A DNA stretch of 21,947 nt, taken from assembly GCA_046757165.1 (NCBI GenBank), contig JBHHXT010000067.1, forward strand, positions 1 through 21,947, read 5' to 3'. The notes under the pieces are model-generated. The model did not search any database and was not told where the DNA came from. It saw nothing but the letters and a program-made list of their open reading frames with translations. Positions 253 to 19,622 of the stretch are shown piece by piece; the first letter of the stretch is position 1, and each line of letters begins with the position of its first letter. Position numbers and translations under genes: made by a program. This DNA is from a bacterium. Its GTDB lineage: Bacteria > Zhuqueibacterota > Zhuqueibacteria > Oceanimicrobiales > Oceanimicrobiaceae.

Positions 253-286
253 CGCCTCTGTACCATTATTCGTGTAGTTAGTCAAA

Positions 287-338: not shown

Positions 339-815
339 TCAATACTCTTGCTTCTGTCGCTGAATCTTTTCTTGCAGCAGAATCAATCCCTGAATGACCG
401 TTTCCGGCCGCGGCGGACAGCCAGGAATGTAGACGTCCACCGGCAGGATGGTGTCTATGCCGACCACGGTTGCATAATCATCATAGAACCCGCCAGTGCA
501 GGTGCAGACGCCAAATGCTACCACATATTTCGGCTCGCACATCTGGTCGTACACGCGGCGCAAGACCGGCGCGATCTTCTGGCTCACAGTGCCGACGCAC
601 ATGAGCATGTCTGCCTGGCGCGGAGAGAATCTCGGAAAAGCAGCGCCAAACCGGTCCAGATCGTAGTGCGATGAGGCCACGGACATGTACTCCATGCCAC
701 AGCAAGCCGTCACGAAGGGATACGGGAACAGCGAATACTTCCTGGCCCAACCAATCGCCCGATCGAGCCGGGTCGTGATCAGGTTATCGCCCCCCAAAAA
801 GTTTCTCAGTCCCAT
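339..815 (-). CDS. nuoB: NADH-quinone oxidoreductase subunit B
   Basis: TACCGMEY tandem-Cys motif, YDLDRFG, SPRQAD, FGVCTCTGG, PVDVYIPGCPPRPE (N2 cluster ligands); overlaps the end of nuoA by 10 bp. Confidence 0.95.
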   Translation of the reverse strand: MGLRNFLGGDNLITTRLDRAIGWARKYSLFPYPFVTACCGMEYMSVASSHYDLDRFGAAFPRFSPRQADMLMCVGTVSQKIAPVLRRVYDQMCEPKYVVAFGVCTCTGGFYDDYATVVGIDTILPVDVYIPGCPPRPETVIQGLILLQEKIQRQKQEY

Positions 816-1159
816 CGAAATGCTCCCCTTTGCCAGGCATAGACCAAGCCCAGAACCAGGACGCCAATGAACATTGTCATGGAAACCAGGCCTGCCACCC
901 CGAGTTTCTGAAACACCACAGACCAGGGAAAAAGGAAAACGATTTCGATATCGAACAAGACGAAGAGAATCGCAATGGTATAAAACTTGATGGAAAATCC
1001 GCTGTCAGGCGTGGAAATGGCGATGTTGCCACATTCGAACGGTTCGCTTTTGCCGGGGTTGCTTTTCTTCGGGCCGAGCCACTGCGACAACCCGAGCAGA
1101 ACCGCGACCACGGCGCCAGCTCCGAGAAACATGATCAAAACAGCGATGAGCTCGTCCAT
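806..1159 (-). CDS. nuoA: NADH-quinone oxidoreductase subunit A
   Basis: 117 aa, three hydrophobic segments, EPFECG loop, FVLFDIEIVFLFPW, C-terminal YAWQRGAFRW. Confidence 0.95.
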   Translation of the reverse strand: MDELIAVLIMFLGAGAVVAVLLGLSQWLGPKKSNPGKSEPFECGNIAISTPDSGFSIKFYTIAILFVLFDIEIVFLFPWSVVFQKLGVAGLVSMTMFIGVLVLGLVYAWQRGAFRWD

Positions 1160-1163
1160 GATC

Positions 1164-2546
1164 TCACCTGACCTCTTTGTCCGCCTTCAAGAGCTGCATG
1201 AATTCGTTGATGGTTTGAAATTCCTCCATCTGCCACACCGCCCGCTTGATCTCCTTTTGCTTCGCCTCGGAAAGCACTGGCGTGCACAGACTGCGAAACT
1301 TGTTGTCCAGGTCTTGCTCACTCATCGGCTCGCGCGGATCGCCTTTCGGATAATCGAGCTGCGCTGAGTGCTCCTGCCCGTTCTTGAGACGAATCGTCAC
1401 CTTCGACGGCTGCTTCGCCGGAAACATCTTTTCGAACGCCTCACTCGCCTCCCCTTTTATCCTGGGCAAAACAGTCTTTATCTGTGCATCTTGAATACGG
1501 TCCTCTTCAAACTGGTCGGTGGTAATCTGCCGGTAAACGATGGCAGCGGCAATGCAGTAAGGCAGGCTGTGGTCTGCCGTTTCGCGCGAGGTCGGGCGGT
1601 ATTTTTCCGTGTCGAACAGAATATCGACCGCCCGGGCGATGGTCGTGACCGTGACTTCCTCGATCTCCTGCGGCTGAATGTCGTTCTCGATGACCACCTT
1701 TAGCGTCGCTGAGATGTGGGTATGGGTCAAAGCTTCGGTCGGAAACGCTTTCATGGAGCAGTCGAGGATCTTGAAGCGCTCCCCCAGGTTTGCCACCAGT
1801 TTGGAGGGGTCCCAGTCCGGGCCGAGCGTCTGCATCAAACCTTCTTTACCCTCGAAGATCTGCTCGGTGCCGGTGTACCCCTGCTGTGCCATCAAGGCCG
1901 CCATGACACCGCTTTGCGCCGCCAGCGGATCGACGGTATTCTTCATCATGGTCAACTTGCCTGCGGTGACAGCTCCCAGGGTCAGATTGTGAGCGCCGGA
2001 GATGCCGATGGCATGCACCATCTGGTCCTCGTTGAGTCCCAACAGGTAACCGGCGACGATGGGCGAAACAAACTGCGTCAGCGTGGCATGATGCCACTTG
2101 CGTTCCCGGATCCCGGGGACAGCGAACTCGCACAGCCGCATTTCAAATTCATAGGCCAGGACGATGGCCCCGATCACCTCCTGCACTGATTTGCCCTCCC
2201 GTTCGCCCACCGCCAGCGCAACGGGAATGATGTCGCTGGGATGGCTCGGATCTTCCTTCCAGTAGATGTCGTTGAAATCCAGGGCACGAACCATCAGGCT
2301 GTTCAAAAAGGTGGCGTTGAAGGCGGGTATTTTTTCACCGCTGCCAATCACCGTCGCCTCCGGCTTCCCACCCATGTCGGCGTAGATGTTCCTGATGATT
2401 TTGACATCATGCGTCGTGGTGCCCCCATAAGCACAAGCGATGGAATCGTAGAGAAAGCGTTTCACTTCCGTTACGACTTCATCCGGTAAATCTTCGTATT
2501 TCAGACCTAAAGAGAATTCTGCAATTTGTCTCGAGATGGACTTCAT
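1164..2546 (-). CDS. prpD: MmgE/PrpD family dehydratase (2-methylcitrate dehydratase-like)
   Basis: 460 aa; RALDFNDIY, HPSD, WHHAT, ETADHSLPY, YPKGDPREPM motifs typical of MmgE/PrpD. Exact substrate not established. Confidence 0.88.
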   Translation of the reverse strand: MKSISRQIAEFSLGLKYEDLPDEVVTEVKRFLYDSIACAYGGTTTHDVKIIRNIYADMGGKPEATVIGSGEKIPAFNATFLNSLMVRALDFNDIYWKEDPSHPSDIIPVALAVGEREGKSVQEVIGAIVLAYEFEMRLCEFAVPGIRERKWHHATLTQFVSPIVAGYLLGLNEDQMVHAIGISGAHNLTLGAVTAGKLTMMKNTVDPLAAQSGVMAALMAQQGYTGTEQIFEGKEGLMQTLGPDWDPSKLVANLGERFKILDCSMKAFPTEALTHTHISATLKVVIENDIQPQEIEEVTVTTIARAVDILFDTEKYRPTSRETADHSLPYCIAAAIVYRQITTDQFEEDRIQDAQIKTVLPRIKGEASEAFEKMFPAKQPSKVTIRLKNGQEHSAQLDYPKGDPREPMSEQDLDNKFRSLCTPVLSEAKQKEIKRAVWQMEEFQTINEFMQLLKADKEVR

Positions 2547-2619
2547 GGGGTATTCACCTTTCTTCGCTTAACTCAGACACTATCCGAAAGTAATAGGTAC
2601 ATAACGACGAACAGGTTCC

Positions 2620-2792
2620 AAGGGGCTGTCCCCAAAGCCCCGAAATGTCATTCCGACCGAAGGGAGGAATCTGACTGTCCACCAATCGTAGGATTTTGGA
2701 AAACAATTGTTTACACCACAGTCCCTTGCCCTAAGAGATTTCTCGCATTCGCTCGAAATGACAGGAACAGGGGCCTTTTTGGACAGCCCCTT
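2620..2792. mobile_element. Non-autonomous MITE/REP-like element with nested inverted repeats
   Basis: Outer perfect 12-bp IR AAGGGGCTGTCC (2620-2631) / GGACAGCCCCTT (2781-2792), extending imperfectly inward; inner imperfect IR TGTCATTCCGACCGAAGGGAGGAATCT (2646-2672) / AGATTTCTCGCATTCGCTCGAAATGACA (2736-2763); central palindrome AAACAATTGTTT (2701-2712); no transposase ORF. Confidence 0.7.
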
Positions 2793-2829
2793 TGGTGTCC
2801 TGCCTGCACCCAGGGCCTCAGCCTCAGCT

Positions 2830-2857
2830 ACACGGTCAGAGACCGTGTAGGATCAGT
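2830..2857. repeat. REP-like hairpin repeat, copy 2
   Basis: ACACGGTC-AGA-GACCGTGT-AGGATCAGT, just downstream of the dehydrogenase stop at 2873; matches 287-314. Confidence 0.75.
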
Positions 2858-2872
2858 CTTTGAGCATTCAGC

Positions 2873-3991
2873 CTAAAGCTTGCGTGCCACTTCCTCCGCC
2901 ACTTCGAGCGTTGTGGAGGTTCCGCCCATGTCGTAGGTCTTGACTTTCCCTTCTCTGATAACCGTCGCAATGGCGCTTTCTAACTTTTCGGACAGCTCGA
3001 GCTCCCCCAGCCATTGCAGCATCAGCTTTGCGGTCAGGAGCATGGCCATGGGGTTGACCTTATGCTGACCGGCATATTTCGGGGCAGAGCCATGTGTCGG
3101 CTCGAAAACCCCGTAGGCGTCGCCGAGGTTGCCGCTGGAGGCAAACCCGAGCCCACCGACGAGTTGTGCACACAGATCAGATATGATGTCACCGAACATG
3201 TTGGTTGCCACCAGGACGCCGTAGTCCTGCGGATTCTTGATGAGCCACATGCACATGGCATCGATATTGGTCTCCCACAGCTCGATGCCGGGATAGTTCT
3301 GCGCAACTTTGCGTGCTTCCCGCAAGACCAGCCCGCCGGTTTCGCGCAAAACATTGGGCTTTTCAACAATGGTCACACTCTTGTAGCCATGCTTTTTGGC
3401 ATACTCAAACGCCCGGGTGACAATGTTGCGGGAGGCCCTTTTTGTATTGACTCGCAAGGAGACCGCGATTTCATCCAGCGGCGTTTGGCCGAAGCGTTTC
3501 ATCTTAGGCGAATGACGCGAAATGACCTCCATCACCTCGCCCGGCAATGGATGAAACTCGATGCCGACGTACAAATCTTCCGTGTTCTCGCGAAAGACCA
3601 CCAGGTCGATGTCATCACGATAGTTCAATGGATTGCCCGGATAGGCTTTGCACGGGCGCAGATTCGTATGCAGGTTGAACTCCTGACGCAAGCGGACGAT
3701 GGGGCTGGAATAGACCAACCCTCTGTCCTGTAATTCGTGCACCAGTTCTTTCTGTGCCTCTTCTTTCGGTTTTGAGGTGATGGCGCCGAACAGGCAGGCG
3801 TCGGTGTTTTTGAGCAGCTCGATTGTTCTGGCAGGCAAAGGGTCGCCTTCCGCCCTCCAGAACTCCCAGCCGATATCACCGTGCTGGTAGTCCCCATTGA
3901 ACTCGAGCGCATCCAAAACGATTCTGGCAGCCTCCATTACGTCATGTCCGACGCCGTCTCCTGGTAACCATGCTATTTTGTACTTTGCCAT
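2873..3991 (-). CDS. Isocitrate/homoisocitrate/isopropylmalate family beta-decarboxylating dehydrogenase, probably NADP-preferring
   Basis: LPGDGVG, YSSPIVRLRQEFNLHTNLRP, RENTEDLY, NMFGDIISD, FEPTHGSAPKYAG, KTYDMGG. Start placed at ATG 3991 (MAKYKIAW) with AGGAG upstream, rather than GTG 4009. Confidence 0.9.
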   Translation of the reverse strand: MAKYKIAWLPGDGVGHDVMEAARIVLDALEFNGDYQHGDIGWEFWRAEGDPLPARTIELLKNTDACLFGAITSKPKEEAQKELVHELQDRGLVYSSPIVRLRQEFNLHTNLRPCKAYPGNPLNYRDDIDLVVFRENTEDLYVGIEFHPLPGEVMEVISRHSPKMKRFGQTPLDEIAVSLRVNTKRASRNIVTRAFEYAKKHGYKSVTIVEKPNVLRETGGLVLREARKVAQNYPGIELWETNIDAMCMWLIKNPQDYGVLVATNMFGDIISDLCAQLVGGLGFASSGNLGDAYGVFEPTHGSAPKYAGQHKVNPMAMLLTAKLMLQWLGELELSEKLESAIATVIREGKVKTYDMGGTSTTLEVAEEVARKL

Positions 3992-4010
3992 CTTCTCCTG
4001 TCCGGGCACT

Positions 4011-4289
4011 TTACTTGCCGGGTTTCTGTTTCAGTTTACCTGCCGCGGGGTCGACAATGTTCATTGTTTTCTGCTTTTCCAGGGCATGCTCGAGAATCAA
4101 GTCATCCATATGCTTGTTTGCTTCTTCCATGGTTTTGAATTTGAAAACCCCCCGCGGATAACTGACAGGATTGAGGTTCTGAGCGAACTCCCAGAGCATC
4201 CCAAGTTGATCATAATACTGCTGGTCAGGGTTGAGGCACCACAAGGCTTCTTCGGCCTCACGTAGCGATCTGTATTTGTACACGGGCAT
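4011..4289 (-). CDS. Small hypothetical protein, putative partner/antitoxin of the adjacent nucleotidyltransferase
   Basis: 92 aa; start overlaps the upstream stop (TAATG at 4289); GGAGG upstream; internal repeat PVYKYRSLREAEE / RGVFKFKTMEEANK. Confidence 0.7.
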   Translation of the reverse strand: MPVYKYRSLREAEEALWCLNPDQQYYDQLGMLWEFAQNLNPVSYPRGVFKFKTMEEANKHMDDLILEHALEKQKTMNIVDPAAGKLKQKPGK

Positions 4290-4762
4290 TACTTTGACTT
4301 CCTCCTTTTCTCCAACAGCCTTTGCAGGCTGTACGCATCCGCCTTATCGTGCAGGCGTACCGTATCTCTCTTCATGCTTATGAGAGTTTCGGGTCTGGCA
4401 ATTCTAATTTTTATGCCATTATCTTCAAGCTCCTCCCATTCCAAATTCTCGTAGGTGAAGACCTCTCCGAGTCGAAATAATATGTCAATGTAAAACCCTG
4501 CCGGTGTCCCGTAGCGAATAACAGGATAATCTGCATCTTCCTCGAGCGTGATCTCATCGATGCTTTCATCGTCGAATACCGTGTGAAGGGCTTGCCTTAG
4601 CCGGGCAAGGTTCTCGGAATCCTGCTTCACAAAGATATCCAAATCCTTTGTAAACCTGTTGATGCCATGGTAGTTGATGGCGACCCCGCCTACGAGTATA
4701 TACTCAACATCGAATTTATGCAACGCCCTGAGAATTTCTTTGTAATAGTCAAAATTCGTCAT
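4289..4762 (-). CDS. Nucleotidyltransferase of the Pol-beta superfamily (AbiEii/DUF6036-like)
   Basis: YILVGGVAINYHGINRFTKDLDIFV (GG..A....G..R.T.D.D signature), a later YIDI strand and a C-terminal K...R..D..D helix. Confidence 0.8.
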   Translation of the reverse strand: MTNFDYYKEILRALHKFDVEYILVGGVAINYHGINRFTKDLDIFVKQDSENLARLRQALHTVFDDESIDEITLEEDADYPVIRYGTPAGFYIDILFRLGEVFTYENLEWEELEDNGIKIRIARPETLISMKRDTVRLHDKADAYSLQRLLEKRRKSK

Positions 4763-4782
4763 GATTTGAGAGCACCTTCTGT

Positions 4783-5319
4783 CTACCGCACCAAATCAAA
4801 ATCAATAAAATCCGCGTGATGCAAGATAATCGCCTCGGCCGAGCGGGGAAAATGGTCTCCTTCCTTCGAGTGCACGGCCACGATGTGCATGACTTCCTCC
4901 GGGATGTCATACTTGAAGCACAGCCCCACGCCACTAAACGGGTGGCGCAGATATTTGCCGTGCTTGCTTTTGACCACGTTGCCGTTTTCCTTGTCGTACT
5001 CGTAGAGCTTGCCCACGTCCGCGAGCAGGGCGCCGGCGATCAGGTGGTCGCGGTTGACGGGGGTCTTTCTGTCGCCGTATGCCTCTGTCAGGACGTTATC
5101 GCACGCGACACACATTTTGCAGACCGTCCGGACGTGCTCCAGATACGTTATTTTGACATTATCCGCCAAAAGCGTAAAGGGAATCTTCAACAACTCTTCC
5201 GCACTCCAGTTTCGGTAGTTCGTGGCTTCGACCCAGACGGCAATCGTGTTCTCGCGCAGTTTTTCGTCTTCGATGAGATTGAATTCAGGGATGATTTCCA
5301 ACAAAGTGGTTCTGTCCAT
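4783..5319 (-). CDS. HD/HDIG-fold metal-dependent phosphohydrolase-like protein with AD in place of HD
   Basis: 178 aa; LEHVRTV, LIAGALLADVGK, LRHPFSG, HIVAVHS, HHAD; GGAG upstream. Confidence 0.82.
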   Translation of the reverse strand: MDRTTLLEIIPEFNLIEDEKLRENTIAVWVEATNYRNWSAEELLKIPFTLLADNVKITYLEHVRTVCKMCVACDNVLTEAYGDRKTPVNRDHLIAGALLADVGKLYEYDKENGNVVKSKHGKYLRHPFSGVGLCFKYDIPEEVMHIVAVHSKEGDHFPRSAEAIILHHADFIDFDLVR

Positions 5320-5339
5320 CTCAGTCTCCTTTTCGTCGC

Positions 5340-6116
5340 TCAGATGGTCCTGTCATCCGGACCGTCGTATTCGTGGTCTTGCGGGTGAATCGGCCGCATC
5401 GGCTTTTGCCGGGTGCGCTCTTCGTGGGCATGGGCGACCAGCCCCGGCACCCTCGCTATCATGAAAAAGGCATTCGCCAGCTCGGGTGAGAAATCCAGTT
5501 CGCACAAGACAGCCGCGATCGCCCCATCAACGTTGATGGGGAGTTTTTTGCCACTCTGACTTACAAGCTCACCCTCGATTGTTTGTGCTATTTTGATGAA
5601 TGTCTCTCCGATGTTCAATTCGTGTGCCAATTCAAACAGCCTGTGACTTCTTGGATCCTGCGTATGCAGACGATGGCCAAATCCGGAGATGCGCCGGCCG
5701 ATTTGCCGGTACTCTTTAACGATCTCTTGCGCCGCCACACCAATTGAGATCTGCCTGGCCTTGACCTTATCCTGCGTTTGCAGCAGAACGCCCATGCAAT
5801 CCTCGATGGCGCCTCCGTGAAATCTCGAGATGGCAAGAATGCCGCTTGCCACGGCCGCGTTTAACGGCGCACCTGTCGAGGCCACGGTAACGGCCGTCAG
5901 CGCCGAAGGGGGTGTGGCCCCATGGTCGATTGAAGAGACCAGAACCGCATCGATCATCTTGCCAACGTTGTCTGTCGGCAGCTCTCCTTTCAACGCCAGA
6001 TAGACACCTTGCCCAAATGAAATGCGCCCCATGAGCTCATCCACACGATAGCCACGCAGACGAACCTCATTTGCTCTAATCTTCGTTATCGCAGTTTTCC
6101 AGTGTAACTGACTCAT
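5340..6116 (-). CDS. Citryl-CoA lyase-like protein (short citrate synthase family)
   Basis: 258 aa; WKTAIT N-terminus, SIDHGATPPS, FHGGAIE, GFGHRLHTQDPR, INVDGAIAA, ARVPGLVAH. Length fits Ccl or the ACL C-terminal domain, not a full ~370-430 aa citrate synthase. Confidence 0.85.
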   Translation of the reverse strand: MSQLHWKTAITKIRANEVRLRGYRVDELMGRISFGQGVYLALKGELPTDNVGKMIDAVLVSSIDHGATPPSALTAVTVASTGAPLNAAVASGILAISRFHGGAIEDCMGVLLQTQDKVKARQISIGVAAQEIVKEYRQIGRRISGFGHRLHTQDPRSHRLFELAHELNIGETFIKIAQTIEGELVSQSGKKLPINVDGAIAAVLCELDFSPELANAFFMIARVPGLVAHAHEERTRQKPMRPIHPQDHEYDGPDDRTI

Positions 6117-6152
6117 TGTATCCCCTCTGTTTCGTTATCCATTATCATGGAA

Positions 6153-6206
6153 CCTTTGCGAGTTTTGCGCCTTTGCGGTTCATAACTTTATTGCGGCTTT
6201 GCCGCA
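6153..6206. repeat. Short TTTGCG triple repeat plus hairpin in the intergenic region
   Basis: TTTGCG at 6155, 6164 and 6172; TGCGGC-TTT-GCCGCA hairpin at 6192-6206. Confidence 0.45.
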
Positions 6207-6274
6207 CCAGGTTCAATGCTGTTATGTGAATCTCAAAAGACACAGTTGTCCCGGCTTCTTTCGTAATGTAAGGG

Positions 6275-7177
6275 TCATTGGCTTACCGCCGCCAGAACCC
6301 CGGCAGTCACCTGCGGGATGTCATCAAAGTTGTCGACCATGTGCGCTCCGACTTCTTGCAGACGTCCCACCTTGCTCGCGTGAGTCCCACGGTTGCCTTC
6401 CACAATCGCGCCGGCGTGCGAAAAACGCGTGCCCGATTGCGCCGCTTTGCCACCGATAAATGCAATCAGCGGCTTGGTAAACTGCCCGGTGGCGATCAGA
6501 TCCGCAACCTGCTCCTCTTGTGTGGTGCCGATCTCACCGAACATGACGACGGCTTCCGTGTCCTCGTCACGCTGGAAGAGCTTGACGGCTTCAGGATGGG
6601 GCAGGCCAACGATGGCATCCCCGCCGACATGCACGATGGTACTCAAACCAATGCCATTCTTGCTCAGGTAGTAAGCGATAGATGACGTAATGCCGCCGCT
6701 TCGCGAGGTGACGCCAACGTGCCCCTTCCGGAACCACTGCCGGGCGGTCTGCGCTCGCCCCCCGATCATGCCCAGAACAGCCTTGCCGACACTCAGCAAG
6801 CCAAGCGTGTTAGGACCGACAAACCGTGCCCCGTTCAATTCGGCTGCATGCGCGATTTCCAGAACATCATAGATGGGCACGCGGTCCGGCACGAGCACCA
6901 GCAGCTTTATACCGGCGTCGATGGCCTCCAGCGCAGCGTTTTTCACCAGTGGAGCGGGGACAAAAATCACCGAGGTGTCGACCGCTGTGTTCTCGGTCGC
7001 TTCCTGTACAGTATCGAAAACAGGCACGTCCAGCACCGTTTGGTTGCCTTTGCCCGGCGTCACGCCGGCCACGACATTCGTGCCGTACTCCATCATCAGC
7101 TTGGCGCGTGCCTGCCCTTCACGACCTGTGATGCCCTGCACCAGCACTTTGTTGTTTTCATCAACGAGAATCGACAT
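6275..7177 (-). CDS. Succinyl-CoA synthetase alpha-like CoA ligase subunit (SucD / citryl-CoA synthetase small subunit-like)
   Basis: VLVQGITGREG, VAGVTPGKG, GPNTLG, SRSGG, GEIG, RFSHAGAI (phospho-His); coupled to the upstream gene by a TGATG overlap. Confidence 0.9.
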   Translation of the reverse strand: MSILVDENNKVLVQGITGREGQARAKLMMEYGTNVVAGVTPGKGNQTVLDVPVFDTVQEATENTAVDTSVIFVPAPLVKNAALEAIDAGIKLLVLVPDRVPIYDVLEIAHAAELNGARFVGPNTLGLLSVGKAVLGMIGGRAQTARQWFRKGHVGVTSRSGGITSSIAYYLSKNGIGLSTIVHVGGDAIVGLPHPEAVKLFQRDEDTEAVVMFGEIGTTQEEQVADLIATGQFTKPLIAFIGGKAAQSGTRFSHAGAIVEGNRGTHASKVGRLQEVGAHMVDNFDDIPQVTAGVLAAVSQ

Positions 7178-8721
7178 CAGGCCACCTGCGCGCGGTATTC
7201 ATTCAAACCAGGAATCGGCAAATCGATATAGGCCCCGCGTTTGCCGTGATAGAGACACTCCATCTCGCACGCGAGACACTCGATGCACTTGCCTGCCTTT
7301 GCTTCCTCAGCCGGAATCGCGAGAAGCGGCACCCCGTCTTCGACTTTCAGAATTTCGGGGATGCAACTTTCGACGCACACCTTGTGGTCACATTCCTTGC
7401 AGGTGCCATGGTCGAAGGTGATGGTGCCGGTCAGGGTCGCAAAGGAATACGGCTGTTCGCAGGTCGGTCTCACAAAGGCTTCATCCGGGTCAGGCGCGAG
7501 TTTGTGCTGATCCACAAGATGCCGCAGTCTTTCGGCGCAGAAATCGGCCGAATCGTCCTTTTTGTAGCCTTCCACCGGCGCGGGCAGATGTTTTGTGCAG
7601 GTCGTCAGAATGTCGATCGCCCGGTCCTCAGAATTGCCCCCGAGTCGAATCACGGCAGGAATCGAAAGATTTTCCTCCACAAACGCCTTTGCCAACCCAC
7701 GAGCGGAATGGAATTGCTCCTGACTCGCAACGCCGGAGCCGGAGCCGAAGTAGCCATCGATGTTCTTTTGGGAAAGAATGATTTTGGCGGCGCGATAGAC
7801 TTTCGAAGCCGCCGGATTGCCGCTGGTGTCGGTAAAATTGGCCAGTTTGAACCCCTTTGCGTGCACGGCGTCCATCGACATCATGGAGCCGCCGCCGCCA
7901 GCGCCGTGGAACCCGATATAGCCTCCGCCCTTCTGAAATTCTTCTTCCATTTGAATAAAATAGAACGTGCCGCGATAGTCGTCCTTTTCGACATCGTAGG
8001 CGATCTTGTCCAGTACCGAGGGCGGCCGGTTGAGCTCACGAGCGATCTCGATGTCGAGCTCCGGGTGACGAAACACGGCGTAATCGTCCACGGCGATGCG
8101 GCAATCTGCGGCCATGACCTCGTTGTCTTCGGTCAGCACGAGCGGGTTGATTTCCGCGGAGCGCGCTTCGACCTTGCGGGCTGCTTGCCACAACTTGACC
8201 AGAACGCCGGCCAACTGCATCTGCCGCTTGCCGTGAATGCCGGTTTGTCGAACCAGATTGCGCGCCTGGTAGTCCCGCAAGCCAGTGGCAATGTCGATCT
8301 CCATCCTGGCCACTTTGTCGGGATGTTCAGCCGCGATCTCCTCGATGCCGCTGCCGCCCATCGAGCTGAAGATCATGACTGGACGGCGGGCGGAGTCATC
8401 GATCACAATGCCGGCGTAGAACTCCTGCCTGATTCTGATTTGTTCTTCAACCAGGACCTTGTCGATGACGAAATCCTCGACTCGCCGTCCAAAAAGCTTT
8501 TCTGACTTTGATTTTGCCTCTGCTGCTGAAGCCGCGAACTGAATGCCACCGAATGCGGCGCGTTTGGTGGACCACACCTGTGCTTTGACGACCACCGGCG
8601 TGTTGAGGGCCTCTGCCACCTTGAAAACCTCGTCAGGGCTCTTCGCGAGCTGGCCTTTGGGGGTCGGTATTCTGAAGTCCAGAAGAATTTGCTTCCCCTG
8701 GTGTTCGTGAAGTCGTGCCAT
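7177..8721 (-). CDS. ATP-grasp CoA ligase beta subunit (SucC / citryl-CoA synthetase large subunit-like) with C-terminal ferredoxin-like domain
   Basis: LHEHQGK, VVVKAQV, VLVEE, EINPL, GAGGGGSM, NFTDTSGNP, VIRLGGN; extra C-terminus with CKECDHKVCVESC and CIECLACEMEC. Confidence 0.88.
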   Translation of the reverse strand: MARLHEHQGKQILLDFRIPTPKGQLAKSPDEVFKVAEALNTPVVVKAQVWSTKRAAFGGIQFAASAAEAKSKSEKLFGRRVEDFVIDKVLVEEQIRIRQEFYAGIVIDDSARRPVMIFSSMGGSGIEEIAAEHPDKVARMEIDIATGLRDYQARNLVRQTGIHGKRQMQLAGVLVKLWQAARKVEARSAEINPLVLTEDNEVMAADCRIAVDDYAVFRHPELDIEIARELNRPPSVLDKIAYDVEKDDYRGTFYFIQMEEEFQKGGGYIGFHGAGGGGSMMSMDAVHAKGFKLANFTDTSGNPAASKVYRAAKIILSQKNIDGYFGSGSGVASQEQFHSARGLAKAFVEENLSIPAVIRLGGNSEDRAIDILTTCTKHLPAPVEGYKKDDSADFCAERLRHLVDQHKLAPDPDEAFVRPTCEQPYSFATLTGTITFDHGTCKECDHKVCVESCIPEILKVEDGVPLLAIPAEEAKAGKCIECLACEMECLYHGKRGAYIDLPIPGLNEYRAQVA

Positions 8722-8727
8722 GCTACC

Positions 8728-9447
8728 TCAGGAAATAGAGTCAGGGATTCCCACGGATGCCGGAAGGCTGGCTTCTGTGTTCAGAAAGTCTTCGATCCTG
8801 GCCTCCCTGAAATCAATTCCAAATACCTGGCTAAAATTCTCTGCAATCTTTGACCGCACCTCGATAAAACTGGGCTGGCGACTCAGCAGTTTGTGCATCG
8901 AGGTGACGGGCTTGTCGACGATGCCGCATGGCACGATGTGCCCAAAGTAGGTCAAGTTGGTACTGACGTTCAGTGCAAAACCGTGCATGGTCACCCAACG
9001 GCTCACTTTGACGCCGATGGCGGCGATCTTCTCTTCCGCCACCCAGACGCCCGTTAACCCCTCTACCCTGCCCGCTGAGATGTCATATTCAGCCAGCGTC
9101 CGAATGATGACTTCCTCCAGATCGCGCAGGAACCGGTGGACGTCAAGATAGTAGTTGTGCAGGTCCAGAATCGGGTAGCCGACGATTTGCCCCGGTCCGT
9201 GGTAGGTGATATCCCCGCCACGATCGATGCGATACACCTGGATACCGCTTTCGTTGAGCCGTTTTTCATCGGTCACAAGATTGGATTCCTGGCCTGATTT
9301 GCCAATCGTGTACGTATGCGGATGCTCGGTCAAAATCAGCGTGTCAGTGCCCGTGCCACGAACAAGGTCTTGATGCAGGCGCTTCTGCAGATTCCAGGCG
9401 TCCTGGTAGTCGAGCTGATGGGTTTTGAGCAAGATTCCGTGCGTCAT
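8728..9447 (-). CDS. lipB: Octanoyltransferase LipB
   Basis: EHPHTYTIG, DRGGDITYHGPGQIVGYPI, KIAAIGV, HGFALNV, IVPCGI. Confidence 0.95.
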   Translation of the reverse strand: MTHGILLKTHQLDYQDAWNLQKRLHQDLVRGTGTDTLILTEHPHTYTIGKSGQESNLVTDEKRLNESGIQVYRIDRGGDITYHGPGQIVGYPILDLHNYYLDVHRFLRDLEEVIIRTLAEYDISAGRVEGLTGVWVAEEKIAAIGVKVSRWVTMHGFALNVSTNLTYFGHIVPCGIVDKPVTSMHKLLSRQPSFIEVRSKIAENFSQVFGIDFREARIEDFLNTEASLPASVGIPDSIS

Positions 9448-9453
9448 GAGACC

Positions 9454-10857
9454 TCAAATATGAATGGCTTCTCCCAGCGCATCTCCGGCCGCCTCCATGA
9501 TTGCCTCGGACAGCGTCGGATGTGCGTGCACCGTCTTCAGCACTTCCGTGTAGGTTGTTTCGAGCGCCCTGGCCAGGCCGAGCTCGGCAATCATGTCCGT
9601 CGCTTCCACGCCAATAATGTGCGCGCCAAGAAGCTCGCCGTACTGTTCATCGAAAACCAGTTTTACCATCCCTTCGGTTTCGCCGACGGCAATGGATTTG
9701 CCATTGGCCCGGAAGGGGAAGCGGCCCACTTTCACTTTGTGGCCGGCTGCAATCGCTTTCTTCTCAGTCATGCCTACGCTGGCGATCTGCGGTTGACAGT
9801 AGGTACAGCTTGGAATATTCGAATAGTCCACCGGCGCCGGAGCGTGACCTGCCAGGCTTTCCACCAAATAAATCGCTTCTGCTGAAGCCACGTGCGCCAG
9901 CAGCGGTGGGCCGATGACATCTCCAATCGCGTAAATGCCCTCGACGTTGGTGCGGTAGGTCTCATCGACTTTGATGAAGCTCTTTTCTGTCTTAACGCCA
10001 ACATTTTCGAGGCCAAGACCCTCGGTCAGCCCGCCAAAGCCCACGGCGATCAGAGCCACCTCCCCCACGAGGTCTTTGGAAGAACCATCTTTGCCGCCCA
10101 CGGTGACGGTCACGCCTTTGGCCGTTTTCTTCACCGCCTCAACTTTGGTGTCGGTCAAAATGTCTATTTTGCGTTTCTTGAAATTCCGCTGCAAGATGTC
10201 GACGACCTCGCTGTCTTCAAAAGGCAGGATGTGCGGCAACATCTCCACGATGGTGCATTTGACGCCAAACGCGTTGTAAAAATAAGCGAATTCAACCCCG
10301 ATCGGGCCGCCCCCGATGATGATGATCGACCTGGGCAGCTTGTCAAGTGCCAGCGCCTCCCGGCTGGAGATCACTTTCTTTTGGTCGATTTGCACGCCCG
10401 GCAGGGAGCGCGTCACCCCTCCGGTGGCGACCACGATGGTCCTGGCGTTGACCGCGGTCGTGACCTTGCCCGAGTCGGAAACCTCCACCACCCCTTTCCT
10501 GGCTATCATGCCAGTGCCGGAAATGTGGGTCACCTTGTTTTTCCGCATCAGAAACGCCACGCCTTTGCTGAGCTTGTCAGCCGCATTGCGGCTGCGCTTG
10601 ATGATTTTCTTTGCGTCAAATTTGACCTCCCCGACCTGAATGCCATAGGCATCCGCTTCCTGGACCAGACGGTAGACCTCAGCACTACGCAGGAGTGCCT
10701 TGCTCGGGATGCATCCCCAGTTCAAGCAAAGTCCCCCAAGTCTCTCCTTTTCGACAACGCACACTTTCATCCCCAATTGCGATGCCCGGATGGCGGCGAC
10801 ATAGCCGCCAGGCCCCCCTCCGATGACTGCCAGGTCAACGTTTTCCGTTTTTGTCAT
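9454..10857 (-). CDS. lpdA: Dihydrolipoyl dehydrogenase (E3)
   Basis: GGGPGGYVAAIRA, GGLCLNWGCIPSK redox disulfide, IYAIGD, HAHPTLSE. Confidence 0.96.
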   Translation of the reverse strand: MTKTENVDLAVIGGGPGGYVAAIRASQLGMKVCVVEKERLGGLCLNWGCIPSKALLRSAEVYRLVQEADAYGIQVGEVKFDAKKIIKRSRNAADKLSKGVAFLMRKNKVTHISGTGMIARKGVVEVSDSGKVTTAVNARTIVVATGGVTRSLPGVQIDQKKVISSREALALDKLPRSIIIIGGGPIGVEFAYFYNAFGVKCTIVEMLPHILPFEDSEVVDILQRNFKKRKIDILTDTKVEAVKKTAKGVTVTVGGKDGSSKDLVGEVALIAVGFGGLTEGLGLENVGVKTEKSFIKVDETYRTNVEGIYAIGDVIGPPLLAHVASAEAIYLVESLAGHAPAPVDYSNIPSCTYCQPQIASVGMTEKKAIAAGHKVKVGRFPFRANGKSIAVGETEGMVKLVFDEQYGELLGAHIIGVEATDMIAELGLARALETTYTEVLKTVHAHPTLSEAIMEAAGDALGEAIHI

Positions 10858-11824
10858 TTAGAATGTTTCCTATGATTTTGGCCCCATGGTTGCGAGAGTT
10901 CTCGATAAACACCTTGCTGCCGTCGGAGCCCGCCGTGATGACCCCCGCAATATAAACACCCGGCACGTTAGTTTCAAGCGTATTCGGATCGTGCACCGCC
11001 GTGTATTCTGACCGCAGCTCGATCCCGATCTGCGTCAGGAATCTGGTATCCGGGTTGTATCCGGTCATGGCCAGGACAAGATCATTTTCGAGCTCCTGAG
11101 TCGTGCCGTCCTTTCTAAGAACGACGATGCTCTCGTCCCGTATTTCCATCACAACTGTGTTGAACAGCGCTCGAATCTTCCCGGCCCTGATCCGGTTCTC
11201 GATGTCCGGCAGAATCCAGTACTTGACAGAGCTTCCGAACGTCTCGCGGCGGTGAATGAGCGTCACCTCGGCTCCATTCTTGTACAAGTCGAGCGCAGCT
11301 TCAACAGCCGAGTTTTTGCCGCCGATGACCGCCACTTTTTTTCTGTAATAGGGATGCGGTTCAGTGTAGTAGTGGCTAACCTTGTCGAGGTCTTCACCGG
11401 GGACGCCCATCATGTTGGGCGTATCGTACTGTCCGGTTGCGATGGCCAGATTTTTCGTCTGGTACGCCCTTCCTTTGCTCGTGGTGAGGGTGAAACCGCC
11501 CTTCTGGCCGCTGACGGACTCCACGCGCTCGAAGAGATGGATGTTCAGGTCATAATGCTCACTGACGATGCGGTAGTACTTGAGCAAGTCCGAACGGGTG
11601 GGTTTTTCCGTTGCGACAATGAACGGGATGCCGCCAATTTCAAGCAAGTCTGGCGTTGAAAACAAAATGAGATGGGTAGGAAAGTTGAAAATCGAATTGA
11701 CCAGACAGCCCTTCTCGAGCACCAGGTAATCCAGGTTGTTCTTCTTCGCGTCTATCGCGCACGCAAGGCCAGCCGGCCCGGCTCCGATGATCACGACGTC
11801 GTTTACCTTGTTATCGACAAGCAC
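10835..11824 (-). CDS. ypdA: YpdA family putative bacillithiol disulfide reductase (FAD/NAD(P)H, thioredoxin reductase-like)
   Basis: IIGAGPAGL, EKGCLVNSIFNFP, FSTPDLLEIGGIPF, SHYYTEPHPY, GGKNSA, VKYWILPD, FIENSRNHG; lacks the TrxB CxxC. Exact start uncertain. Confidence 0.85.
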   Translation of the reverse strand: MLVDNKVNDVVIIGAGPAGLACAIDAKKNNLDYLVLEKGCLVNSIFNFPTHLILFSTPDLLEIGGIPFIVATEKPTRSDLLKYYRIVSEHYDLNIHLFERVESVSGQKGGFTLTTSKGRAYQTKNLAIATGQYDTPNMMGVPGEDLDKVSHYYTEPHPYYRKKVAVIGGKNSAVEAALDLYKNGAEVTLIHRRETFGSSVKYWILPDIENRIRAGKIRALFNTVVMEIRDESIVVLRKDGTTQELENDLVLAMTGYNPDTRFLTQIGIELRSEYTAVHDPNTLETNVPGVYIAGVITAGSDGSKVFIENSRNHGAKIIGNILNDKNGKR

Positions 11825-11896
11825 TGAGTCGATGCGATCCTTTCTTTTTCTGCTTGAGCATTGTTTCTGAACGAGTCAGTTGTGATTGCGAAACCA

Positions 11897-13171
11897 TCAA
11901 TTCAAAACATCGCGGGGGTCCGTGATCACACCACGCACAGCTGTCGCGGCTGCCACAGCCGGACTGACCAGATAAACCTGTGCCGAAGTGTGACCGTTTC
12001 TGCCGACAAAGTTGCGATTCGTGGTGAACACCCCGACCTCGTTTTCTGCCATCACGCCCATATGGGCGCCAAAGCACGCCCCGCAGGTCGGCGGGCCGAT
12101 GGAGGCGCCTGCCTGGTGGAAGATCTCAGCCAGACCCTCGGTCAGCATCTGGTGGTAGATCTGCTCAGTGGCGGGCACCACCACCATGCGCGTCTTATCG
12201 TGCACTTTCTTGCCTTTCAGCACACGCGCCGCGATCCTGAGATCTTCGATCTTGCCATTCGTACACGAGCCGATGTAAACCTGATCGACCGCAACCGGTT
12301 CTGCCTGCGAGACCGGAACAACGTTGCCGGGCAGGTTGGGGCAGGCAACCATGGGCTGCAGCTCGCTCACATCATAGTTGAGCTCCTGGCAATAAACAGC
12401 ATCGTCATCCGGCTGGAAAAACATCCATTCTTCCTCCTGCTTCGTTGCCCGGCCTTGCAGGTACGCCCGGGTGGTTTTGTCGGCGATAACCACGCCGTTC
12501 TTGCCGCCGCACTCAATCGTCATGTTGGCAAAAACAAACCGGTCATACATGGGCATGTCCTCGATGGTCGCGCCACCGAATTCCAGGGCTTTGTAGGTCC
12601 CCCCTTCTATGCCTAAATCGCGACAAACCAGCAGCATCATGTCCTTGGCCGACACCCATTCCGGCAGCACGCCGGTAAACCGAATCTTGATGGATTCCGG
12701 TACGCGCAGCCAGGTTTCGCCCAGGACCCAGGCGGCGGCCATGTCTGTACTGCCCACGCCGGTCGCAAAACAGCCCAGCCCGCCGTACGTGGTGCTGTGG
12801 GAATCGGCGCCAAGCACGACGTCGCCAGGATGAATCAGCCCCTGCTCCGGCAGCAACTGGTGCGAGATGCCTGATCGACCCACTTCGTAGTAATATTTGA
12901 TGCCTTGTTCACGGGCAAAATTGCGCATCATCTTGGAAAACTCGGCAGACTTGATGTCCTTGGCCGGGACCAGGTGGTCGTGAACGAGCGGCACCTTTTC
13001 GGGATGGAAAACCTTTTCGCCTCCCATTTCCTGGAAGACCTTTATCGTCAGAGGCGAGGAAATATCCGTCGCCATCGCTATATCTATTTTGACAATAACA
13101 AGATCGCCTGGCCCGACTTGCTTCAAACCAGCACGATTTGCCAGAATCTTTTCGGTCAAGGTCATGCCCAT
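11897..13171 (-). CDS. 3-isopropylmalate dehydratase / homoaconitase large subunit (LeuC/HacA short type)
   Basis: 424 aa; MGMTLTEKIL, DHLVPA, GADSHSTTYG, IGSCTNG, TCGACFG (three Fe-S Cys), TTNRNFVGRNG, YLVSPAVAAA. Confidence 0.92.
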   Translation of the reverse strand: MGMTLTEKILANRAGLKQVGPGDLVIVKIDIAMATDISSPLTIKVFQEMGGEKVFHPEKVPLVHDHLVPAKDIKSAEFSKMMRNFAREQGIKYYYEVGRSGISHQLLPEQGLIHPGDVVLGADSHSTTYGGLGCFATGVGSTDMAAAWVLGETWLRVPESIKIRFTGVLPEWVSAKDMMLLVCRDLGIEGGTYKALEFGGATIEDMPMYDRFVFANMTIECGGKNGVVIADKTTRAYLQGRATKQEEEWMFFQPDDDAVYCQELNYDVSELQPMVACPNLPGNVVPVSQAEPVAVDQVYIGSCTNGKIEDLRIAARVLKGKKVHDKTRMVVVPATEQIYHQMLTEGLAEIFHQAGASIGPPTCGACFGAHMGVMAENEVGVFTTNRNFVGRNGHTSAQVYLVSPAVAAATAVRGVITDPRDVLN

Positions 13172-13483: not shown

Positions 13484-14902
13484 GTGAAAAACAGATTCAA
13501 CAGACTTACCTCAAAAGAATGGCTGCCGTTTCAGAAATCGTGGTTTCGATTTAGTGGGCTGGAGAAGCTGTACGAACAGAATCTTCGCTTTTTCACCCTG
13601 CCGCAGGAGAGTCCGGCATCGGTCTTCTTCCATGGCCGGCAAGAAGACAGGCAGATCCTGGAGCAAGTGGCAAGAAGAAACGGTTGTGACATCACCACGG
13701 ACGTCAATCCGCCCATCAACTTCGCCCTGATCGACCTGCTTGAGATTGTGGGTCAGGAAACCTCTGAGACCGACTATGAAAAAACCAAAACCGAAGTGCT
13801 CGGGCTCGTTTCGAAGCTGTACCACTGTCTCGACCATCGCCGGTTTCTGGCTGTGTTTGTCCGCAACGTCGCGGTTGGGAACCGGTTCTATCCTTACGCC
13901 TGGGACCTGGCCAAATCCATGGCTGAAATCCTTTCGCTCAAAGACGAAAAGATCGGCTGCCTGGACAGGGGGACGCGGGCGCAGGAGCAGAATTATTTCA
14001 CGACCCGGCAGAATGTCATCTATTGCCTCTATTTCCGCAAGGACGAACAGGCGGCCGGACCGCAGGGCAGCCACAAAACCGGCCTGTTTCACAGGACTAC
14101 GCAGGAGCACACCTCGCTCACATTCAGTCCGCTGGAGAGCTGGTATGTTCTGAAGCCACAGCCGCGCAAGAAAAACGAGATCCTGCATCCGGCGAAATAC
14201 CCGGAAGACCTGGTCGACCTTTTCGTGCAGGCCTTCACCCGGGAGCAGGACACGGTTTTTGATCCCATGTGTGGAACCGGAAGCACCCAGCTCGGCGCTT
14301 TGCGAAACCGGCGTCACGGCTATGGTGTGGAGCTGAGCGAGTTTTTCACCCAGATTGCGGTCGAGCGCTGCGACGAGTTCCTGGCACCCAGACAAGAGGC
14401 TCTGTTCGCGACCGATCGAAAACTCAGGTGCAAGATTCTGAACAAAGATGCTCGCGACATCAACGCGACTGACTTCCCGGCGATTGACTACATGCTCACC
14501 TCCCCGCCCTATTGGGATATGCTCAATATGAAAGGCGCCGAAAACCAGGCCAACCGAAAACAGAAGGGCCTGCAGCTCAACTACTCAGATGACGAACAGG
14601 ATTTGGGGAATATTGGAGATTATCAGGGGTTTCTTACAGAGTTGTGCACAATCTACTTCAAAATTATCGACCAGCTGAAACCAGGGGGGTATCTTACGAT
14701 CGTCGTTAAGAATATCAAGAAGAAAGGCAAAAACTACCCCTTTGCGTGGGATTTGGCGGAGAGACTGCAGGAAAAACTCACCCTCTTGCCCGAGGTTTTC
14801 TGGTGTCAGGATGACATTTCCATTGCCCCCTACGGCTACGGCAACACCTGGGTCAGCAATACCTTCCACCACTATTGCTTGAATTTCCGGAAGCCCGGTT
14901 AA
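13484..14902 (+). CDS. SAM-dependent amino-methyltransferase (N4/N6 DNA methylase family), orphan, with a degenerate duplicated N-terminal half
   Basis: HPAKYP, VFDPMCGTGST (motif I), GVELS, DYMLTSPPYW (motif IV), LKPGGYL; GTG start; no restriction enzyme adjacent. Confidence 0.85.
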   Translation: MKNRFNRLTSKEWLPFQKSWFRFSGLEKLYEQNLRFFTLPQESPASVFFHGRQEDRQILEQVARRNGCDITTDVNPPINFALIDLLEIVGQETSETDYEKTKTEVLGLVSKLYHCLDHRRFLAVFVRNVAVGNRFYPYAWDLAKSMAEILSLKDEKIGCLDRGTRAQEQNYFTTRQNVIYCLYFRKDEQAAGPQGSHKTGLFHRTTQEHTSLTFSPLESWYVLKPQPRKKNEILHPAKYPEDLVDLFVQAFTREQDTVFDPMCGTGSTQLGALRNRRHGYGVELSEFFTQIAVERCDEFLAPRQEALFATDRKLRCKILNKDARDINATDFPAIDYMLTSPPYWDMLNMKGAENQANRKQKGLQLNYSDDEQDLGNIGDYQGFLTELCTIYFKIIDQLKPGGYLTIVVKNIKKKGKNYPFAWDLAERLQEKLTLLPEVFWCQDDISIAPYGYGNTWVSNTFHHYCLNFRKPG

Positions 14903-18247: not shown

Positions 18248-18316
18248 AATACTCTCCTTAGTGATTTAATTCAGATATCATGTTGAAGAATGATTTTTTC
18301 TTTTTTTTTGTTTTGT

Positions 18317-19609: not shown

Positions 19610-19622
19610 AGAATACCCTTCT

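Follow-up and report, generated by a model that had tools for sequence, protein, structure and literature searches.

The closest described counterparts of the locus studied here are the CcsAB ligase and Ccl lyase of H. thermophilus (6HXQ, 6HXP), the succinyl-CoA synthetase SucCD, the upper alpha-aminoadipate pathway as it occurs in fungi and Thermus, with homocitrate synthase, aconitase, Lys4/LysTU, and Lys12/HICDH, and the 2-methylcitrate cycle, with PrpC, PrpD or AcnD/PrpF, AcnB, and PrpB. According to the accessible text of one study, canonical homocitrate is the (R) isomer, homoaconitases catalyze only the homoaconitate/homoisocitrate step, and methylcitrate requires a dehydratase of its own (PMC3556520). 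ATP-linked citrate cleavage is placed near equilibrium (-8 kJ/mol) in the available portion of another (PMC13147460).

The window, meaning the whole stretch of 21,947 nucleotides analyzed, carries a co-oriented gene run on its minus strand, with internal gaps of 158 and 326 nt. Every gene named in a first-pass annotation is present on that strand, where it had been placed, and, as that annotation stated, the window holds no prpC, prpB, acnA/B, or full citrate synthase ORF; it holds no leuD ORF either. A promoter and terminator scan gave counts at chance level. As in H. thermophilus, separate genes encode a ligase beta subunit (SucC-like, ATP-grasp; 7177..8721, 514 aa), a ligase alpha subunit (SucD-like; 6275..7177, 300 aa), and a Ccl of the citryl-CoA-lyase family (5340..6116, 258 aa), the last exceeding its model cut-off (NF004869, 269 vs. 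212 bits) and matching H. thermophilus Ccl best in the PDB (6HXP, E 3.5e-62). However, the cluster's partners, relative to CcsAB/Ccl, are homoaconitase, PrpD-like, and HICDH-like genes, and the present host retains citrate synthase and a canonical SucCD.

The CoA ligase

Although the ligase shares its fold with SucCD, both subunits fall below the model cut-offs (beta, 255 vs. 370 bits for SucC; alpha, 295 vs. 336 and 353 bits for SucD), and the alpha subunit is 44% identical to the canonical SucD of the host genome, encoded on contig C15. The best full-length PDB match of the beta subunit is the SCS beta subunit 3UFX, which we take to be of the T. aquaticus type. The beta subunit carries the loops GAGGGGS and NFTDTSGNP, with an invariant core in 82/82 sequences, resembling the GGGGS and NFTDxxGNP loops of CcsAB; it thereby has both the catalytic glycine loop and the Gly-Asn-Pro loop of the Ccs/ACL enzymes; for ACLY, the accessible text of one report locates these at G281-283 and S308 (Ser/Gly-Asn-Pro loop) (PMC11365397). 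The citrate-binding ANxT loop (ACLY 343-348 region) is absent, and in an alignment to 6HXQ_B the TANNT of H. thermophilus CcsA is replaced by VASQEQ, again in 82/82 sequences. In the ligase tree, whose ANxT clade consisted of unnamed sequences labeled by motif, the window ligase falls in a clade of its own, outside both the ANxT clade and the SucC clade with GAGL and FGGI..CD loops. Scoring below the cut-offs, with different loops and its own clade, it is not a plain succinyl-CoA synthetase, in agreement with the first-pass annotation; judged by sequence, it is a member of neither SucC nor Ccs/ACL, and we predict that the SucC-like protein is the large subunit of a homocitryl-CoA synthetase.

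This protein also bears an eight-cysteine ferredoxin-like tail, overlooked in the first-pass annotation, which likewise distinguishes it from CcsAB. The C-terminal domain spans approximately residues 419-514, its eight cysteines are invariant in 82/82 sequences, and the domain model has a pLDDT of 95.8. The best Foldseek matches were ferredoxins, all with E values of at least 0.09 and none at E<=0.001, and Pfam Fer4 gave no match. A role in redox or Fe-S sensing is a guess.

The dehydrogenase and the (de)hydratases

The beta-decarboxylating dehydrogenase (2873..4009, 378 aa) has a Lys12-like substrate-recognition loop, its substrate-loop region best matching S. pombe HICDH 3TY3 (YSSPIV), together with the cofactor loop HGSAPKY of the IDHs 2IV0 and 2D1C, rather than the NAD-type HGSAPDI of T. 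thermophilus HICDH; the "NADP-type" label given earlier agrees with this loop. YxSPI is retained in 83/83 orthologues and KY in 81/83. The protein as a whole scores below every HICDH model cut-off (NF040626, 338 vs. 540 bits), and its top full-length PDB matches are IDHs. We predict that it is an NADP-linked homoisocitrate dehydrogenase.

The MmgE/PrpD-family protein (1164..2546, 460 aa) has both the N and C Pfam domains and scores 55-89 bits against PrpD cut-offs of 458-950; the family also includes isomerases, epimerases, and decarboxylases, as described in the accessible text of one source (PMC12290011). Among 77 genomes, all of them related, incomplete MAGs of our choosing, its orthologue occurs in 48 and an alternative Fe-S dehydratase in 18, with no overlap, while the two homoaconitase types (Lys4 and HDNT-type LeuCD) occur in 34 and 35, overlapping in 1. 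The 62 ligase-positive genomes include 57 with the dehydrogenase, 58 with Lys4 or HDNT-type LeuCD, 58 with PrpD or the Fe-S dehydratase, and 52 with all three, a pattern that implies two separate (de)hydratase steps, as proposed earlier. The PrpD/Fe-S dehydratase slot is filled alongside Ccl (58/62) and empty in an operon with an HMG-CoA-lyase-like gene (0/80 loci; genomes G027 and G031). The PrpD-like protein is thus a predicted (S)-homocitrate/homoaconitate (de)hydratase, whose partner is likely an off-window Lys4-type homoaconitase. The host genome encodes one on contig C202 (TIGR00139, 862 bits, cut-off 530); in nine related loci a fused Lys4-type homoaconitase follows the HD-fold gene, in two more it flanks the ligase, and the copy in locus L064 reaches 755 bits against the same cut-off.

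The first-pass annotation had instead assigned that partnership to the LeuC/HacA-family large subunit in the window (11897..13171, 424 aa). This protein scores 242 bits with TIGR00139 (cut-off 530), lies outside the HDNT-type homoaconitase clade, and groups with LeuC of leucine operons and of LeuA-like/LeuB operons in two trees, the first with a long-branch warning and the second from FastTree only; orthologues at >=80% (that is, at least 80%) occur in only 11/77 genomes, all close kin. On these trees and this phyletic pattern, we rejected it as a homoaconitase, and it likely belongs to a separate LeuABCD/beta-oxidation (2-oxoacid elongation) module. The LeuD, thiolase, Hbd, crotonase, and LeuA-like genes of that module lie on contigs C188 and C102, whose ends overlap by 55 nt, a sequence that occurs twice in the genome. 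The LeuA-like gene of C102 was not adopted as a synthase for the pathway, since it sits with thiolase, Hbd, crotonase, and LeuD; in other genomes, genes of this type also lie beside LeuB and a 2-oxoacid oxidoreductase.

Conserved core and lineage-specific neighbors

Across 80 related loci, the SucD-like gene adjoins the ligase beta gene in 71, and Ccl and the HD-fold gene follow in 62 and 38. This co-location is far above chance, and the core is co-conserved across phyla, as the first-pass reading required. Carriers include records titled KSB1, Calditrichota, Zixiibacteriota, Anaerolineae, and Marinimicrobia; the gene set is common to many mostly uncultured bacteria. The HD-fold protein (4783..5319, 178 aa; PF01966) travels with the pathway and has Ala at the motif His position (of 44 homologues, 28 have A and 15 have H); a PDB search returned no relative, and an Atlas search returned clusters without a functional name.

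Other neighbors are lineage-specific and outside the conserved core. The ypdA, lpdA, and lipB genes (8728..11824) all score above their model cut-offs, including ypdA (10835-11824, TIGR04018), which had been overlooked. They neighbor the ligase in loci L016-L026 only, the 11 closest of the 80. The nuoA and nuoB genes (339..1159, both model matches) recur in 6/80 and 5/80 loci, and the next ORF after nuoB is unrelated, not nuoC. We therefore rejected lipB, lpdA, and nuoAB as pathway members, and the earlier use of these genes as a sign of an oxidative direction is not supported. Between the HD-fold gene and the dehydrogenase, the first-pass annotation overlooked a nucleotidyltransferase (157 aa; PF08843, 44 bits, cut-off 22.5) and a 92-aa ORF (together 4011..4762), present in 0/80 and 1/80 loci, respectively, which likely represent an inserted toxin-antitoxin-like pair.

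A candidate reverse homocitrate route and its alternatives

We put it at an even chance that the core genes encode a reversible (S)-homocitrate route, operating mainly from 2-oxoadipate and CO2 via homoisocitrate and homocitrate to acetyl-CoA and 2-oxoglutarate. This would likely be the upper half of the aminoadipate pathway, by which fungi make lysine, run in reverse and serving lysine breakdown. Specifically, the dehydrogenase would carboxylate lysine-derived 2-oxoadipate with NADPH, and the homoisocitrate formed would pass through the off-window homoaconitase and the PrpD-like protein to (S)-homocitrate. Activation of the latter at the expense of ATP and CoA, followed by cleavage, would fall to the ligase and Ccl, giving the balance 2-oxoadipate + CO2 + NADPH + ATP + CoA -> acetyl-CoA + 2-oxoglutarate. 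Ccl, which has the Si-citrate-synthase fold, is a predicted (S)-homocitryl-CoA lyase; by CIP reasoning, (S)-homocitrate would be the substrate of a Si-type lyase, which calls for an extra enzyme. We infer substrates, stereochemistry, and direction throughout, beside an observed record of gene content, co-conservation, motifs, and displacements.

The HICDH-like loop and the Lys4-type homoaconitase, found in related loci and in the host genome, favor the substrate assignment and are shared with the upper aminoadipate pathway, as is an isomerization spread over two enzymes, a feature described in the accessible text on that pathway (PMC3556520). In contrast to that pathway, the cluster set uses a CoA ligase and lyase, has an NADP-type loop, and would act on (S) rather than (R) homocitrate; no LysS-type homocitrate synthase scored above cut-off in any of 78 genomes, and most carriers lack LysW. 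The cleavage direction is favored by the displacements of the cleavage module, the distribution of CitDE, the NADP-type loop, the LysW gaps (33/52 complete gene sets lack it), the near-equilibrium energetics of ATP-linked citrate cleavage, and a lysine 6-transaminase (640 bits, cut-off 521) beside an aldehyde dehydrogenase in the host, which also has lysA and dapF. In a sister operon, a CoA-transferase and HMG-CoA-lyase-like pair stands in for ligase and Ccl, without PrpD; the CaiB CoA-transferase and its partner accompany the same dehydrogenase in 19/23 long loci. CitDE-type lyases occur in 10/15 ligase-negative relatives and 0/13 ligase-positive kin, a pattern confounded by kinship, and the CitDEF genes do not adjoin the dehydrogenase. 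Eukaryote-type citrate synthases in ligase-negative relatives were set aside as a substitute synthase, one copy being two ORFs from an IDH-like gene. Counting against the route, lysine-catabolic genes occur as a pair next to the operon only in G031 and in one near relative among 80 further loci, and lysine genes were accordingly rejected as a constant neighbor of the HMG-CoA-lyase-like operon. A partial L116 query found no ALDH7 orthologue in the host genome (best 33%). One acyl-CoA dehydrogenase of the host scores above no model cut-off; we read it as glutaryl-CoA-dehydrogenase-like, and the host may have an ordinary 2-oxoadipate route via such an enzyme.

The same chemistry could run forward, with Ccl and the ligase replacing homocitrate synthase and gaining ATP, and 2-oxoadipate passing to LysW-type lysine synthesis or glutaryl-CoA oxidation. 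We consider this unlikely, though the likeliest of the alternatives: besides the lack of a LysS-type enzyme above cut-off, the host has lysW, two lysX paralogues, lysY, lysZ, and a lysJ-like gene with no synthase in the lysW cluster, LysW occurs in 24/62 ligase-positive genomes, an HDNT-type LeuCD is next after lysW in G075, and G010, without the ligase, has a synthase-like gene beside lysW. However, G013 carries both the ligase cluster and such a synthase-like gene, several lysW clusters include argG/argH-like genes and may serve arginine, and displacement by a CoA-transferase and lyase pair suits cleavage, as do the LysW gaps. Another 2-oxoacid series (alkylmalate or longer homocitrate) under the same activate-and-cleave logic would accommodate the VASQEQ carboxylate-binding loop, the LeuC-type gene in the window, and the promiscuity of the beta-decarboxylating dehydrogenase family, but the partner hydratases are Lys4-type and above cut-off, the YSSPI loop matches HICDH, and leucine and elongation operons exist separately, making this improbable.

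The first-pass annotation had mainly proposed that the cluster replaces citrate synthase, aconitase, and IDH. The host genome encodes citrate synthase (471 vs. 421 bits), AcnA (1426 vs. 686), canonical SucCD on C15 (580 vs. 370 and 461 vs. 336), which that annotation had suggested looking for, and, next to citrate synthase, an IDH-like gene whose loop reads ESAN, all elsewhere, and because of this the cluster is not a substitute for TCA enzymes. Its second option, catabolism of an unusual tricarboxylate, is the best reading, and among its substrates homocitryl-CoA fits best. A non-canonical citrate route, or reductive-TCA citrate cleavage, is very improbable: the Ccl model match, the GGG and GNP loops, and the NADP-IDH-like cofactor loop would suit it, but the ligase lacks the ANxT loop and falls outside the ANxT clade, and citrate needs no PrpD-type step. 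A variant of the 2-methylcitrate (propionate) pathway is scarcely credible. A PrpD-family gene does lie beside a Si-type lyase, the pairing of that cycle, in which AcnD (with PrpF) parallels the Fe-S dehydratase swap, and contig C36 has an AceA-type isocitrate lyase motif. Nevertheless, PrpC and PrpB are in none of the loci examined, the AceA-type ORF was the sole match of a motif scan, the PrpD cut-offs are far from reached, and a dehydrogenase stands in place of the lyase; 2-methylisocitrate, a tertiary alcohol, is not oxidizable by a dehydrogenase.

Returning to the reverse homocitrate route, we hold at somewhat less than even the broader claim of a CO2-consuming, oxygen-independent lysine/2-oxoadipate catabolism via (S)-homocitrate that is widespread and undescribed, comprising an "ATP-homocitrate lyase" that bears an iron-sulfur tail, a homoisocitrate dehydrogenase linked to NADP, a PrpD-family stereo-switch, and three unrelated cleavage modules (ligase and Ccl, CoA-transferase and HMG-CoA-lyase-like, and CitDEF-like) interchangeable across phyla. 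Our literature searches found no paper on this route or gene family. If true, it would add a carboxylation-based amino acid breakdown route for uncultured bacteria and new substrates for three enzyme families, and would point to bacteria as a setting in which fungal-type Lys4 and Lys12 operate. Whatever the mechanism, Ccl passes the model for citryl-CoA lyase, a reductive-TCA marker, making false autotrophy calls possible, and the ligase genes are publicly labeled succinyl-CoA synthetase.

Composition and distribution of the ligase cluster

The cluster is a real and conserved module, apparently undescribed, whose predicted workings resemble those of Ccs/Ccl coupled with the upper aminoadipate pathway, while it is a member of neither. 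All genes named by the first-pass annotation were found on the minus strand of the window, in the order LeuC-family, ypdA, lpdA, lipB, SucC-like, SucD-like, Ccl, HD, nucleotidyltransferase with a 92-aa ORF, dehydrogenase, PrpD-like, nuoA and nuoB. That annotation overlooked ypdA, an inserted gene pair and the domain of ~95 residues with which the SucC-like protein ends. The inserted pair (4011-4762, minus strand), an AbiEii-like nucleotidyltransferase plus the ORF between HD and the dehydrogenase gene, is nearly missing from related loci. After nuoB comes an ORF other than nuoC (1-254, minus strand), incomplete at the contig end, whose DTG motif looks aspartyl-protease-like by eye; in one further genome (G021, locus L160), nuoAB run on into more nuo-like genes. 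A DNA-methyltransferase-like gene (13484-14902, plus strand) diverges from the run, and positions 17717-21947 (minus strand) hold an OsmC-like gene, a 442-aa protein with no family match and an RND/MMPL-type transporter.

The ligase falls under the SucC and SucD model cut-offs and shares GGGGS and NFTDxxGNP with Hydrogenobacter thermophilus CcsA, its VASQEQ occupying the position of TANNT in CcsA; in ACLY, the catalytic centre comprises G281-283 and S308, and citrate is bound by residues 343-348 (available text of PMC11365397). In a FastTree phylogeny of 116 rows bearing motif labels only (the 114 of 150 cluster representatives with at least 340 aa, the window SucC-like protein and the genome's own canonical SucC), the window ligase belonged to a clade of 19 rows (support 99), distinct from both a 48-row GAGL-type clade with canonical SucC (support 100) and a 10-row ANxT clade (support 100), in keeping with the earlier supposition that it is no plain succinyl-CoA synthetase. 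Ccl passed the NF004869 cut-off, with 6HXP as its nearest structure. Eight cysteines of the ligase C-terminal domain are invariant in 82/82 sequences, and its confident model (pLDDT 95.8) has ferredoxins as nearest structural neighbours, none of them at E 0.001. The tail is absent from several relatives within the ligase clade, and two tree rows (P0157, P0183) keep it with degenerate catalytic loops. Several Anaerolineae-titled loci (including L067:1-9924 and L088:1-9518) carry HdrA-like and HdrB/C-like genes and two ETF gene pairs directly 5' of the ligase, which may serve its ferredoxin-like tail as a partner in electron transfer.

Full or partial ligase orthologues occurred in 16/20 same-family, 1/2 same-order and 0/18 same-class genomes. 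A scan of species genomes gave 155 relatives, and the best 80 of these 155 loci came from records titled KSB1, Calditrichota, Zixiibacteriota, Anaerolineae, Marinimicrobia and others. Across these differently titled phyla, the neighbourhood conservation on which the first-pass annotation depended was found for SucD-like (71 of the best 80 loci, many ended by contig ends), Ccl (62) and HD (38), followed by LeuC-family (33), dehydrogenase (26) and PrpD (10) genes; the corresponding counts for the 25 of these loci spanning at least 20 kb were 24, 24, 19, 17, 15 and 5. Among the same best 80 of 155, lipB (11), lpdA (10, one a distant 29% match), nuoA (6) and nuoB (5) were confined to the 11 closest loci, the distant lpdA match excepted; these genes, once read as favouring an oxidative direction, are local neighbours and uninformative on direction. 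In G021, lipB is separated from the ligase by sdhAB and a fused 2-oxoacid dehydrogenase E1 (L026:5114-9984), and a second E1 pair follows PrpD (L160:3110-5133).

Our literature search, with most subscription journals and all supplements outside its scope, returned no account of homocitryl-CoA, homocitrate lyase, reductive 2-oxoadipate carboxylation via homoisocitrate in lysine degradation, or the cluster, and an earlier description is possible; the portions of two carbon-fixation gene surveys covered by our search terms made no mention of homocitrate or of the carrier phyla. This analysis newly contributes the mutual exclusions, a prediction on stereochemistry together with its check, and the LeuC reassignment.

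Two predicted hydratase slots alongside ordinary TCA genes

The cluster had been proposed to replace citrate synthase, aconitase and IDH. The genome (assembly completeness 99.98%) keeps the ordinary genes, namely AcnA, canonical SucC and SucD (both above cut-off), and a citrate synthase above cut-off whose immediate 5' neighbour is an IDH-like gene bearing an ESAN loop, besides a leuABCD operon; the cluster is thus additional, not a replacement. The IDH-like gene passed no model cut-off and is provisionally so assigned from its loop and position. Elsewhere, the genome carries a fused fungal-type homoaconitase (contig C202; TIGR00139, 862 bits vs a cut-off of 530), an orphan LeuD on contig C188 and an additional LeuB-like gene on contig C228.

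We searched 77 genomes, comprising 27 of 40 relatives (completeness at least 93%) and 50 of 69 more distant ligase loci picked mostly by length, with thresholds placed by us at gaps in the score lists (E < 1e-130 for PrpD). PrpD orthologues were present in 48/77 and an RDF-motif Fe-S dehydratase in 18/77, with an overlap of 0 vs 11.2 expected, while the fused homoaconitase Lys4 (34/77, including two partial matches) and a split, HDNT-type LeuCD (35/77) overlapped once vs 15.5 expected, kin among these genomes not being independent. The PrpD/RDF-type swap was seen repeatedly, in class relatives and Anaerolineae-titled genomes alike. Among 62 ligase-positive genomes, the dehydrogenase was found in 57, each hydratase slot was filled in 58, and all three were present in 52. 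The split-aconitase idea of the first-pass annotation was thus right in kind, although the LeuC that it cast as the partner of PrpD is likely not the one. In seven Anaerolineae-titled loci, among them L067 (16431-16907), the two LeuCD pairs flank a conserved protein of 157 aa that has no NCBIfam match and might act with the RDF-type dehydratase as its accessory or isomerase.

Probable homocitrate chemistry and its direction

In its substrate-loop region, the dehydrogenase best matches Schizosaccharomyces pombe homoisocitrate dehydrogenase (HICDH), with LFGA and YSSPIV in common. Its cofactor loop, HGSAPKY, is that of IDHs 2IV0 and 2D1C, which we take to be NADP-linked, vs HGSAPDI in Thermus thermophilus HICDH. 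Its orthologues, some sharing one genome, retain YxSPI in 83/83 and KY in 81/83. Counting against an HICDH identity, the top full-length PDB matches are IDHs, and no HICDH model cut-off was reached. A Lys4-type homoaconitase lies 3' of HD in nine loci and beside the ligase in two others, the L064 copy scoring 755 bits. Taken as a whole, homocitrate chemistry is the probable function of the module.

Citryl-CoA has the (3S) configuration, and by priority-rule reasoning the expected substrate of a lyase with the Si-citrate-synthase fold is (S)-homocitryl-CoA, so that water would have to be added to the opposite face of homoaconitate. A Si-type lyase would then need an extra enzyme, and an (R)-type lyase none. 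Fungal homoaconitases perform only the homoaconitate-homoisocitrate step, the canonical form of homocitrate is the (R) one, and a dedicated dehydratase is required for (2S,3S)-methylcitrate (available text of PMC3556520). The MmgE/PrpD family includes isomerases, epimerases and decarboxylases (available text of PMC12290011), so family membership alone does not fix the reaction. In genomes G027 and G031, genes for an HMG-CoA-lyase-like protein, a CaiB CoA-transferase and a single LeuCD come after the same dehydrogenase, and a PrpD or RDF orthologue is absent from both. Across 80 metagenome loci of the HMG-CoA-lyase-like gene, CaiB (64), the dehydrogenase (50) and LeuC (35) recurred, and PrpD, the RDF-type dehydratase and HD were each found in 0/80; the 23 loci of at least 8 kb held CaiB in 22, the dehydrogenase in 19 and LeuC in 20. 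Enzymes of the HMG-CoA-lyase family cleave (R)-citramalyl-CoA, a point for which our literature search gave no confirmation.

We give cleavage, as in lysine breakdown, about even odds and prefer it to synthesis. Counted for it are the CoA-transferase and lyase pair standing in place of ligase and Ccl; a CitDE fusion with CitF in 10/15 ligase-negative relatives (7 of these 10 also carrying the extra dehydratase), 0/13 ligase-positive kin and, as a broken copy, 1/50 others; the NADP-type loop; the lack of LysW from 33/52 complete sets; the own genome's lysA and dapF and its lysine 6-transaminase gene, which adjoins an aldehyde dehydrogenase; and an ALDH7-like gene and aminotransferase 5' of the operon in G031. 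This case is weakened by the ALDH7 linkage recurring in 1/80 loci only, by the CitDEF genes being unlinked and perhaps acting on citrate or citramalate, and by G032, where CitDE is present and the dehydrogenase absent. Synthesis, which we consider unlikely, would draw on the genome's LysW cluster without a synthase, on LysS above cut-off in 0/78 genomes, on lysW with a synthase-like gene where the ligase is absent (G010), and on an HDNT-type LeuCD immediately 3' of lysW (G075). ATP-linked citrate cleavage is put at -8 kJ/mol (available text of PMC13147460), by which the homocitrate route is probably reversible, and it may serve both breakdown and synthesis. Class relatives at L187 and L201-L205 have the CitD-CitE fusion, then CitF, without ligase or Ccl. 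On contigs C354 (L103), C138 (L323), C293 and C5, the own genome carries a LysW cluster that includes two LysX paralogues and, besides this cluster, lysA and dapF.

The window LeuC and a possible chain-elongation module

The window LeuC carries a DISS motif, and its orthologues at 80% or more are limited to 11 close kin. A 72-row tree, which carried a long-branch warning, placed it with leucine-operon LeuC and the LeuC of LeuA-like/LeuD/LeuB operons and kept the HDNT-type enzymes separate (SH-aLRT 95); a 40-row FastTree gave the same grouping (support 96). On these sequence grounds, it is likely not the hydratase partner in the cluster. Its probable LeuD partner is the C188 gene, ahead of thiolase and Hbd. 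Crotonase and a LeuA-like gene are found on C102, whose end overlaps that of C188 by 55 nt, and in G004 all five genes form a single run. Together, the window LeuC and the C188/C102 genes resemble a distinct module for elongation and beta-oxidation.

Clusters in the own genome (C188:206-3089 and C102:16-2234; L099, L104), G004 (L129), G059 (L130) and G070 (L131) combine a LeuA-like synthase, LeuC/LeuD and LeuB-like genes with thiolase, Hbd, crotonase, acyl-CoA dehydrogenase and 2-oxoacid oxidoreductase. Their content suggests a separate chain-elongation and beta-oxidation route, to which the window LeuC likely belongs and whose substrate, at a guess, is possibly 2-oxobutyrate or propionate.
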